64,000 nucleotides of DNA from assembly GCF_016026235.1 (NCBI RefSeq), contig NZ_CP065613.1; one strand, 5' to 3'. Numbering within the stretch: position 1 is the stretch's first letter; every line of letters starts with the position of its first letter. The notes beneath the pieces were generated by a model, which made no database searches, was not told the DNA's origin, and saw only the letters and a program-made list of their open reading frames with translations. Positions 28,427-31,195 of the stretch are shown piece by piece. The DNA comes from Escherichia coli. Lineage in GTDB: Bacteria > Pseudomonadota > Gammaproteobacteria > Enterobacterales > Enterobacteriaceae. The translations under genes and the position numbers were made by a program.

Positions 28427-28750
28427 CTACAGGCGGTGGCGATAATCGCTGGGAGTGCGATCAAACTGCCGACGGAAAACGCGGGAGAAGGTCTGCTGAG
28501 AGACATAACCCAGGTCCATTGCGATATCAAAAATCGGACGCTCGGTGGTGCGCAACTCAACGGCGGCCAGTAACAGACGGCGTTGACGAATGTAATCGCC
28601 AAGCGTCTGATGCGTCACCGTGCGGAACATCCGTTGCAGGTACCACTTTGAATAGCCTGATTTTTTTGCGACGACATCAATGTTAAGCGGCTGGTCAATA
28701 TGCTCGTCAATCCATGCGATAAGATCCTGAATAATTTTCTGATGGGACAT
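28427..28750 (-). CDS. soxS: Superoxide-response transcriptional activator SoxS (107 aa)
   Basis: Protein MSHQKIIQDLIAWIDEHIDQPLNIDVVAKKSGYSKWYLQRMFR... (AraC family). Confidence 0.97.
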   Translation of the reverse strand: MSHQKIIQDLIAWIDEHIDQPLNIDVVAKKSGYSKWYLQRMFRTVTHQTLGDYIRQRRLLLAAVELRTTERPIFDIAMDLGYVSQQTFSRVFRRQFDRTPSDYRHRL

Positions 28751-28835: not shown

Positions 28836-29300
28836 ATGGAAAAGAAATTACCCCGCATTAAAGCGCTGCTAACCCCCAGCGAAGTGGCGAAACGCAGCGG
28901 TGTGGCGGTATCGGCGCTGCATTTCTATGAAAGCAAAGGGTTGATTACCAGTGTCCGTAATAGCGGCAATCAGCGCCGATATAAACGTGATGTGTTGCGA
29001 TATGTCGCAATTATCAAAATTGCTCAGCGTATTGGCATTCCGCTGGCGACCATTGGTGAAGCGTTTGGCGTGTTGCCCGAAGGGCATACGTTAAGTGCGA
29101 AAGAGTGGAAACAGCTTTCGTCCCAATGGCGAGAAGAGTTGGATCGGCGCATTCATACCTTAGTGGCGCTGCGTGACGAATTGGATGGATGTATTGGTTG
29201 TGGCTGCCTTTCGCGCAGTGATTGCCCGTTGCGTAACCCGGGCGACCGCTTAGGAGAAGAAGGTACCGGCGCACGCTTGCTGGAAGATGAACAAAACTAA
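28836..29300 (+). CDS. soxR: Redox-sensing [2Fe-2S] regulator SoxR (154 aa)
   Basis: Protein [37 protein letters not shown]... (MerR family) with C-terminal [12 protein letters not shown] cluster motif. Confidence 0.97.
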
Positions 29301-29435
29301 AGCGCCACAAGGGCGCTTTAGTTTGTTTTCCGGTCTTTGTCTTTCTCTCTATCCCGCTGGTACACAGGAGGGTTTCCCCCGACGTCAACACACCTCATTC
29401 GAGCACGTGGTGGAGGTTCCGGTTGGTGTTGATGC
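29295..29435 (-). ncRNA. ryjA: Candidate small RNA (RyjA-like) convergent with soxR
   Basis: I recall a ~140-nt sRNA between soxR and ghxP on the opposite strand in K-12; the hairpin at the soxR stop (aaagcgccacaagggcgcttt) is followed by a U-rich tract on both strands. Ends not determined. Confidence 0.3.
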
Positions 29436-29845
29436 TTTAATTGTATGTCACCGGCGTTTCTTCGCCAGTGTAAAAGTATACTTTTTAGCCGCAATATTTT
29501 TGTCATCTTAGACGATTTTTTATCGCAATCCTCAACGGTGTACGGCTCGATAACGCTGCAATCTTGCGCATCGACGATAACGTTTGCGCATCAATTGCCT
29601 GGTTTTTCATCGTCAAGACAATAAAAGAGAAAAAAGCAGCAAACTTCGGTTGAAAAAGCCGCTATGATCGCCGGATAATCGTTTGCTTTTTTTACCACCC
29701 GTTTTGTATGCGCGGAGCTAAACGTTTGCTTTTTTGCGACGCAGCAAATTGTCGCAAACCTGGAGCAGGAAGATAACGTTTCGCTGGCAGGGGATTGTCC
29801 GCCACGCATCTTGACGAAAATTAAACTCTCAGGGGATGTTCTCTT

Positions 29846-31195
29846 ATGTCTACGCCATCAGCGCGTACCGGCGGTTCACTCGACGCCTGGTTTAAAATTT
29901 CACAACGTGGAAGCACTGTCCGTCAGGAAGTGGTTGCCGGGTTAACAACGTTTCTGGCGATGGTCTACTCGGTCATCGTCGTTCCAGGTATGTTGGGTAA
30001 AGCAGGCTTCCCGCCTGCGGCAGTTTTCGTTGCAACCTGTCTGGTTGCCGGACTCGGTTCTATCGTGATGGGTCTGTGGGCTAATCTGCCGTTGGCGATT
30101 GGTTGCGCCATCTCCCTGACGGCGTTTACCGCATTCAGCCTGGTGCTGGGGCAACATATTAGCGTACCTGTCGCGCTGGGTGCCGTGTTCCTGATGGGGG
30201 TGCTGTTTACGGTAATTTCTGCCACGGGTATCCGTAGCTGGATTTTGCGCAACTTGCCGCACGGTGTGGCGCACGGCACGGGGATCGGTATCGGTCTGTT
30301 CCTGCTGCTCATTGCCGCTAATGGTGTCGGTCTGGTGATTAAAAACCCGCTTGATGGTCTGCCCGTTGCGCTGGGTGATTTCGCGACCTTCCCGGTGATT
30401 ATGTCACTGGTAGGTCTGGCGGTGATCATCGGCCTGGAAAAACTGAAAGTCCCTGGTGGCATTCTGCTGACCATTATCGGTATCTCAATTGTCGGTTTGA
30501 TCTTCGATCCTAACGTCCATTTCTCCGGCGTTTTCGCCATGCCTTCATTGAGCGATGAAAACGGCAATTCACTGATTGGCAGCCTGGACATTATGGGCGC
30601 GCTGAATCCTGTAGTCCTGCCAAGCGTTCTGGCGCTGGTGATGACGGCAGTATTTGATGCCACCGGAACTATCCGTGCCGTCGCCGGCCAGGCGAACCTA
30701 CTGGATAAAGATGGGCAGATCATCGACGGTGGGAAAGCACTGACCACTGACTCCATGAGCAGCGTTTTCTCTGGCCTGGTGGGTGCTGCTCCGGCAGCGG
30801 TATACATCGAGTCTGCGGCGGGTACGGCGGCGGGCGGTAAAACCGGTTTGACGGCTATCACCGTTGGCGTGCTGTTCCTCCTGATTCTGTTCCTCTCTCC
30901 GCTCTCTTACCTCGTTCCGGGGTATGCAACGGCTCCGGCGCTGATGTACGTTGGCCTGCTGATGCTGAGCAACGTGGCGAAAATCGACTTTGCTGATTTT
31001 GTTGATGCGATGGCGGGTCTGGTTACAGCGGTATTCATCGTGCTGACCTGTAACATCGTAACAGGCATCATGATCGGCTTCGCGACTCTGGTGATTGGTC
31101 GTCTGGTTTCCGGCGAATGGCGCAAGTTGAACATCGGTACGGTCGTTATCGCCGTGGCGCTGGTGACCTTCTATGCGGGTGGCTGGGCTATCTAA
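29846..31195 (+). CDS. ghxP: Guanine/hypoxanthine permease GhxP (NCS2 family, 449 aa)
   Basis: Protein [50 protein letters not shown]... typical of AzgA-like purine permeases. Confidence 0.92.

Follow-up and report, generated by a model that had tools for sequence, protein, structure and literature searches.

Three predicted PurR operators conserved around the promoter of the purine transporter gene ghxP in Escherichia coli and other Enterobacteriaceae

Related regulatory systems and the ghxP locus

The classical PurR targets purF, purT, purL, purMN, purEK, purHD and purC share with ghxP the PurR motif ACGNAAACGTTTGCNT, the corepressor logic and membership of the same regulon, and the boxes at ghxP score within the range of these classical pur-regulon operators. 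The classical pur promoters, however, carry a single strong 16-bp box, whereas ghxP carries three boxes that are conserved across the family. The purR gene is reportedly autoregulated through two operators located downstream of its promoter, and the operator of purB is said to lie inside the coding region. These two genes are precedents for PurR sites downstream of the transcription start, and purR is also a precedent for more than one operator per gene. Unlike purR and purB, ghxP combines upstream, promoter-overlapping and downstream boxes, and the downstream box, O3, is proposed below as a putative roadblock.

Two further comparisons can be drawn outside the purine regulon proper. The lac (O1/O2/O3) and gal (OE/OI) systems resemble ghxP in having a repressor of the LacI/GalR family and a promoter operator with auxiliary operators roughly 40-110 bp away, and the strictly conserved distance between O1 and O2 of ghxP (99 bp) is a likeness of the same kind. 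Repression in lac and gal proceeds by DNA looping, whereas PurR is known as a dimer without the LacI tetramerisation helix, and the 99 bp at ghxP correspond to 9.4 helical turns at 10.5 bp per turn, which argues against simple same-face phasing of O1 and O2. The purine riboswitches of Bacillus pbuG and pbuX are similar to ghxP in that guanine or hypoxanthine shuts its own importer and in the presence of a long structured leader. In contrast to these riboswitches, ghxP would rely on a protein repressor, its leader has no match to the Rfam purine riboswitch, and its covarying hairpin is a simple stem-loop.

Control of ghxP (yjcD) by PurR is already known. Cho et al. 2011 (PMC3159470) reported a PurR ChIP-chip region at ryjA/yjcD that appeared only with adenine and whose log2 ratio of 2.08 is the highest in their table. 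This region maps to positions 29199-29829 of the 64-kb stretch of E. coli DNA analysed in the present study (the window) and spans all boxes described here, and the resolution of the ChIP-chip data (a 630-bp region) is too coarse to assign occupancy to single boxes. The only motif called at ryjA/yjcD by Cho et al. 2011 (PMC3159470) corresponds to copy 2 of the motif set analysed below; in Sastry et al. 2019, where ghxP is a member of the PurR-1 iModulon, the motif was again copy 2. That purines repress ghxP has been described by Rodionova et al. 2021 and Kozmin et al. 2013. Both adenine and HAP are published repressors of yjcD expression, and purine analogues that are toxic and mutagenic also enter through GhxP. 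Neither the copy 3 nor the copy 4 sequence occurred in the paper text searched, RegulonDB and RegPrecise lying outside that search. The three-operator layout proposed here is a refinement of known regulation and not a new system; what is novel relative to the published motif calls is the pair of boxes formed by copies 3 and 4, together with an uncharacterised conserved hairpin in the leader.

The gene order in the E. coli window is soxS-soxR-sraL-ghxP (Table 1). The soxR-ghxP intergenic region of 545 bp contains all motif copies and the palindrome, and the small RNA gene sraL/ryjA forms its other flank, outside the operator cluster. The 651 bases around the motif cluster were matched in 5,420 of 5,426 complete E. 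coli genomes, with flanks annotated as soxR and ghxP. The terminator hairpin of sraL (29289-29324) overlaps the 3' end of soxR and has a weak Rfam match on the plus strand (23.7 bits), as would be expected if soxR and sraL shared a bidirectional terminator. For the comparison between species, one genome per species was taken, which gave 80 ghxP loci from about 30 genera of Enterobacteriaceae, and box scores were tallied over 81 Enterobacteriaceae upstream regions (79 for copies 1, 2 and 3). Two loci bear implausible organism labels that probably reflect contamination or mis-binning, namely a 2.9-kb contig of a 'Bacillota bacterium' MAG that is 100% identical to E. coli ghxP (L001) and a 'Chryseobacterium sp.' assembly with an Enterobacteriaceae-type locus (L076).

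Table 1. Features of the soxS-ghxP region, in coordinates of the window
Feature	Position	Strand	Details
soxS	28427-28750	-	
soxR	28836-29300	+	
sraL/ryjA small RNA gene	29293-29433	-	Rfam RF01408, 153 bits; annotated in K-12
Copy 1, cgataacgctgca, not an operator	29548-29560	+	-3.4 bits
Conserved TTGCGCAT element, 2 bp upstream of O1	29564-29571	+	information-content map of 78 species; alignment
Predicted PurR operator O1 (copy 2), ACGATAACGTTTGCGC	29574-29589	+	18.6 bits; would span -112..-97 from the predicted start
Predicted -35 hexamer TTGAAA	29650-29655	+	GTTGAAAA invariant across species
Predicted PurR operator O2 (copy 3), GGATAATCGTTTGCTT	29673-29688	+	10.1 bits; -13..+3 from the predicted start
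Predicted -10 hexamer GATAAT, inside copy 3	29674-29679	+	predicted start about 29686
Conserved block CGTTTTGTATGCGCGG, directly upstream of O3	29700-29715	+	
Predicted PurR operator O3 (copy 4), AGCTAAACGTTTGCTT	29716-29731	+	19.1 bits; would span +31..+46
Conserved stem-loop in the leader	29733-29758	+	8-9 bp stem, -10.6 kcal/mol
Copy 5, weak PurR-like box, AGCGAAACGTTATCTT	29770-29785	-	7.05 bits
ghxP Shine-Dalgarno AGGGGA	29832-29837	+	invariant context CTCAGGGGATG
ghxP (yjcD), guanine/hypoxanthine transporter CDS	29846-31195	+	

PurR boxes and promoter across species

A sequence-only reading of the window had described five spaced copies of one motif and a separate palindrome upstream of ghxP. 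All of them lie within 1-2 bases of where that reading placed them, the motif starts being 29548, 29575, 29673, 29717 and 29771 for copies 1 to 5. The five sequences are thus present, but they are not equivalent: copies 2-4 are PurR-grade, copy 5 is background and copy 1 is no site. The 12-mer used in that reading, with up to 3 mismatches allowed, had 69 matches in the window against 61.8 +/- 8 expected, which is no enrichment; copy 3 fits this 12-mer only after a shift of 1 base, and the core AANCGNTTGC was likewise not enriched in the window. Signal and noise were separated only by a full 16-bp PurR matrix, which was built from the 27 sites of Table 1 of Cho et al. 2011 (PMC3159470) with the ghxP site excluded and was scanned over both strands of the 64 kb, about 128,000 positions.

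With this 27-site matrix, the published PurR sites scored from 7.8 to 25 bits in a leave-one-out analysis. The background reached 10 bits at a rate of 4.7e-5 per position, and there were zero background positions at 18 bits in the window. Copies 4 and 2 were rank 1 and rank 2 of the 64 kb, with the next best position anywhere at 12.5 bits. Copy 3 was rank 6, and only 6 positions in the window reached 10 bits; from the background rate, the probability of a 10-bit site arising by chance in 160 bp is about 0.0075. The score of copy 5 is at background level, 23 positions in the window reaching 7 bits. When set against the range of the published sites, copies 2 and 4 were well inside it, copy 3 was at its low end and copy 5 was inseparable from background. 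In addition, the form of the pur box, a 16-bp imperfect palindrome with a central CpG (ANGCAANCGNTTNCNT), was found in copies 2, 3 and 4, in one half only of copy 5 and not at all in copy 1.

The same division was seen across the Enterobacteriaceae. A score of at least 10 bits was reached by copy 2 in 78 of 79 species and by copy 3 in all 79, the latter scoring 13.4 bits where the sequence reads AGATAAT. Copy 4 reached this level in each of the 81 species, with a range of 12.6-22.4 bits. Copy 5 had a median of -2.1 bits and reached 7 bits in 10 of 81 species; it was PurR-like (7-9.6 bits) only in Escherichia and some Citrobacter, while its ACGTTT core was kept more widely. Copy 1 had a median of -7.7 bits, reached 7 bits in 1 of 79 species, and gave way to unrelated sequence in two other species of Escherichia, one of them E. 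albertii. In Pluralibacter gergoviae (L080), copy 2 was missing and copies 3 and 4 were kept. The resemblance of the core to a PurR site, as suggested earlier, was therefore borne out for copies 2, 3 and 4, which score as PurR operators with a matrix that excludes this locus. The same holds for the view that the boxes outnumber what one operator would need, as three of them (copies 2, 3 and 4) have both PurR-grade scores and conservation across species. Under the test by which the earlier reading had proposed to refute itself, PurR matrices combined with conservation in relatives, copies 2-4 withstood, copy 1 fell and copy 5 largely fell. Judged by matrix score and conservation, copies 2, 3 and 4 are conserved predicted PurR operators, here designated O1, O2 and O3, and neither copy 1 nor copy 5 is an operator in its own right.

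The copies had also been described as phased, and this description did not hold. Their centre-to-centre distances are 26, 99, 43 and 54 bp, of which only the 99 bp is constrained across species. The centres of O1 and O2 were separated by exactly 99 bp in all 78 species compared, though much of the intervening sequence varies, and the distance between O2 and O3 took 22 different lengths from 42 to 205 bp owing to lineage-specific insertions, with copy 4 located 107 to 183 bp from the ATG. Because only the O1-O2 spacing is constant and the other spacings vary, the motif set is not phased. The invariant 99-bp spacing is real, and nothing examined explains its cause.

Conserved sequence was also observed next to two of the boxes. 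The TTGCGCAT element forms a direct repeat with units 20 bp apart (29564-29571 and 29584-29591), the downstream unit being the 3' end of O1; the upstream unit is as conserved across genera as the downstream one and is contained in no PurR-scoring 16-mer. About 10 bp upstream of the 29564 element, most species, though not E. coli, also have a TGTTGC that is conserved less strongly. The near-invariant CGTTTTGTATGCGCGG block, which is outside the 16-bp PurR footprint, stays with O3 despite insertions of up to about 160 bp between O2 and O3, as seen in Klebsiella, Raoultella, Kluyvera, Pseudocitrobacter and others.

The best promoter-like signal of the intergenic region was TTGAAA-18-GATAAT, which matches 10 of 12 consensus positions, occupied one and the same position in all 79 species examined and gave the top score in custom promoter scoring. 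This predicted -10 hexamer, GATAAT, accounts for the unusual left half of copy 3. The GATAATCGTTTGC sequence of copy 3 was invariant in 79 of 81 species, and CGTTTGC, the PurR right half that follows GATAAT, was invariant while the adjoining promoter spacer varies. In Mangrovibacter (L068, L071), the -35 hexamer and GATAAT are kept and the CGTTTGC half of copy 3 is lost; the constraints on the -10 hexamer and on the PurR half-site are therefore separable. The predicted ghxP leader extends roughly 160 nt from a start near 29686. A search by name and by coordinates of the supplements of transcriptome and start-site papers returned no experimental start for yjcD/ghxP, and every position given relative to +1 is accordingly a prediction. 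Near the ATG and at copy 4, the comparison across species showed no conserved sigma-70-like signal. A 22-codon upstream ORF beginning at the ATG at 29708 was also considered and rejected, as this ATG is AAG, CTG or ACG in many genera and is preceded by no Shine-Dalgarno sequence.

For comparison within the regulon, 13 stretches of the K-12 genome (146 kb) covering PurR-regulon loci were scanned with the same matrix, whose training set contains the sites of the other loci. The other K-12 PurR targets had a single strong box, to which purR, xanP and adeP add a weaker second one; the purR boxes scored 22.5 and 10.0 bits and are 88 bp apart, and the box in the purB coding region scored 22.3 bits. 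Only ghxP had two boxes of at least 18 bits and a third of at least 10 bits within 160 bp in the K-12 scan, and this stands even with its own sites excluded from the matrix and those of the others included. The scan also revealed, 47 bp upstream of uacT (L084, K-12 3,031,320), the gene of the urate transporter, a 19.1-bit PurR-type box, ACGTAAACGGTTGCTT, which is missing from the motifs of Table 1 of Cho et al. 2011 (PMC3159470), where the neighbouring ygfT region is listed.

Structure of the ghxP leader

The palindrome noticed in the sequence-only reading was confirmed as TTTGCGAC (29733-29740) and GTCGCAAA (29751-29758), that is TTTGCGAC-N10-GTCGCAAA, located after copy 4 and a T-run. Its stem varies in sequence but pairs across 65 distinct leaders, for example as GCGAC/GTCGC, GTGGC/GCCAC, GTGAC/GTCAC and CGTAAC/GTTACG. 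Seven pairs showed compensatory changes in 62 cells, a value reached by 0 of 500 shuffles, and slid controls gave 1-16 cells. Because the compensatory changes of the stem exceed those of shuffles and slid controls, the palindrome is a selected structure. The pattern of change among the leaders is most simply read as that of an RNA stem-loop in the leader, apart from the PurR boxes. A terminator or attenuator was rejected for this palindrome, as no U-run follows on either strand (a T-run is 5' of the stem on the plus strand and an A-run comes after the stem on the minus strand) and the terminator scan reported only the sraL terminator at 29294-29324. Moreover, an Rfam scan of 29000-30100 in E-value mode returned sraL only, with no purine riboswitch or other leader family. 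A further local helix, GUGGA/UCCAC at 29791-29803, can pair and was rejected as well: it had 0 compensatory cells in one register and 2 in the other, which is little or no compensatory support, and it is broken in E. coli itself.

Several other conserved features of the leader were observed. GGA motifs are present as GCGGAG (29713-29717), as GGAGAU in most genera (29766-29772), as GUGGAUUGU (29791-29799) and in the Shine-Dalgarno context CAGGGGAUGU (29830-29840). The CsrA consensus is ARGGAUGU, which the CAGGGGAUGU context resembles, and the literature search found no link between CsrA and ghxP/yjcD. The loop of the hairpin (29741-29750) is C-rich (GCCCC...) in other Escherichia species and most genera, and contains CCCCU, the complement of AGGGG in the Shine-Dalgarno sequence; the E. 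coli loop, in the window and in K-12, is GCAGCAAATT instead. RNAalifold paired the conserved CCGCC/CCACC (29799-29803) with the GGGG of the Shine-Dalgarno sequence (29832-29836), a possible anti-Shine-Dalgarno pairing in this fold model, both sides of which are almost invariant and so beyond covariation testing.

There is an outside chance that the leader constitutes an undescribed post-transcriptional layer and, separately, that the 99-bp O1-O2 arrangement represents a higher-order PurR-DNA architecture new for dimeric PurR. The parts of such a post-transcriptional layer may be the hairpin after O3, the complementary AAACGUUU cores of copies 4 and 5, and the GGA motifs, and a CsrA-like protein, a small RNA or a metabolite may act on the leader on top of PurR.

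Repression of ghxP by PurR

The observations are in all likelihood best described by a PurR-repressed ghxP promoter with three operators and a transcription start near 29686. In this model, ghxP would be transcribed from one strong sigma-70 promoter, TTGAAA-18-GATAAT, and a build-up of hypoxanthine or guanine would bring corepressor-bound PurR onto O1, O2 and O3. Bound at O2, which covers the -10 hexamer and the start, PurR would exclude RNA polymerase; at O3, about 38 bp downstream in the transcribed leader, it would impede promoter escape or form a roadblock, as modelled on the downstream operators of purR and purB. O1, about 105 bp upstream, would be the least understood of the three sites. 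Shutting off the importer of PurR's own corepressors would close a negative feedback loop. We infer the start site, the division of labour among the boxes and any cooperativity between them from the arrangement of the sites. Some features of the locus speak against the three-operator model: copy 3 scores at the low end and owes its conservation partly to the -10 hexamer that it contains, a dimeric repressor at -105 has no obvious way to repress, and the putative upstream promoter that might give it one is poor in E. coli.

The evidence on the individual boxes bears directly on readings with fewer operators or with another protein. If only copy 2 were functional, as both published motif calls name copy 2 alone, copies 3 and 4 would be chance matches or would be conserved for other reasons, for which the -10 hexamer included in copy 3 and the leader RNA around copy 4, conserved beyond the box, are available. 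Copy 4, however, outscores copy 2 and is the best of the 64 kb, in a window where background never reaches 18 bits, and it is PurR-grade in 81 of 81 species; the CGTTTGC of copy 3, furthermore, is invariant beside a variable spacer and can vanish while the -10 hexamer stays. We give this single-site reading very little credence. The earlier suggestion of a second regulator, by which the GATAA boxes would be read by another LacI-family or other protein beside or instead of PurR, draws on the GATAA common to copies 1, 2, 3 and 5, which is an atypical PurR left half (position 5 is T in only 1 of 27 training sites), and on the extra conserved flanks, with TTGCGCAT preceding copy 2 and TGCGCGG preceding copy 4. 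Against this, the strongest box, copy 4, lacks GATAA and has GCTAAA/GTTAAA instead, the GATAA of copy 3 is part of GATAAT, the predicted -10 hexamer, and conservation is lacking in copies 1 and 5. Moreover, PurR explains the regulon-level behaviour of ghxP, and no candidate protein was identified. A second regulator is unnecessary for explaining the data, and its participation is highly improbable.

Two other readings concern the role of individual boxes. Copies 2 and 3 could each lie over the -10 hexamer of one of two tandem promoters, P1 and P2, 96 bp apart, with copy 4 as a shared downstream roadblock. A second promoter-like signal, TTGCCA/TTGCAA-16-TAACGT, with its -10 hexamer inside copy 2, does occur at a fixed position in 56 of 79 species, and it would give copy 2 a direct repressive role; in E. 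coli, however, this signal is degenerate, with CTGCAA as the -35 hexamer and a score below threshold, and TAACGT is a weak -10 hexamer. No pair with compensatory change was found between copies 2 and 3, and there is thus no covarying RNA structure downstream of copy 2 to argue for transcription there, and independent promoters would not require an invariant spacing. Tandem promoters are on balance unlikely, if a serious candidate. It has also to be considered that copies 4 and 5 and the palindrome might serve chiefly as mRNA elements and not as DNA operators, the self-complementary AAACGUUU cores pairing around the hairpin and controlling stability or translation. The hairpin stem covaries, leader conservation extends well past the boxes, and the cores of copies 4 and 5 are pairable in 92% of cells, compared with 25-48% for slid controls, and are paired in the minimum-energy fold of E. 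coli. Yet the helix between copies 4 and 5 shows 0 compensatory changes, and the cores of PurR boxes are complementary to one another by construction. The leader as a whole folds with unexceptional stability (z = -0.8) and has no Rfam match, and an 8-bp RNA helix would not need the full 16-bp PurR-grade score seen at copy 4. An origin of these boxes mainly in RNA function appears improbable to us.

The three-operator layout is of interest with respect to purine homeostasis, as the corepressors of PurR, guanine and hypoxanthine, are the substrates that GhxP imports. If true, the conserved layout of O1, O2 and O3 would explain the very strong adenine-dependent ChIP signal at this locus and would give the purine regulon an unusually tight feedback node in ghxP. 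In this capacity, ghxP would offer a simple case for the use of multiple operators by a dimeric repressor of the LacI family.
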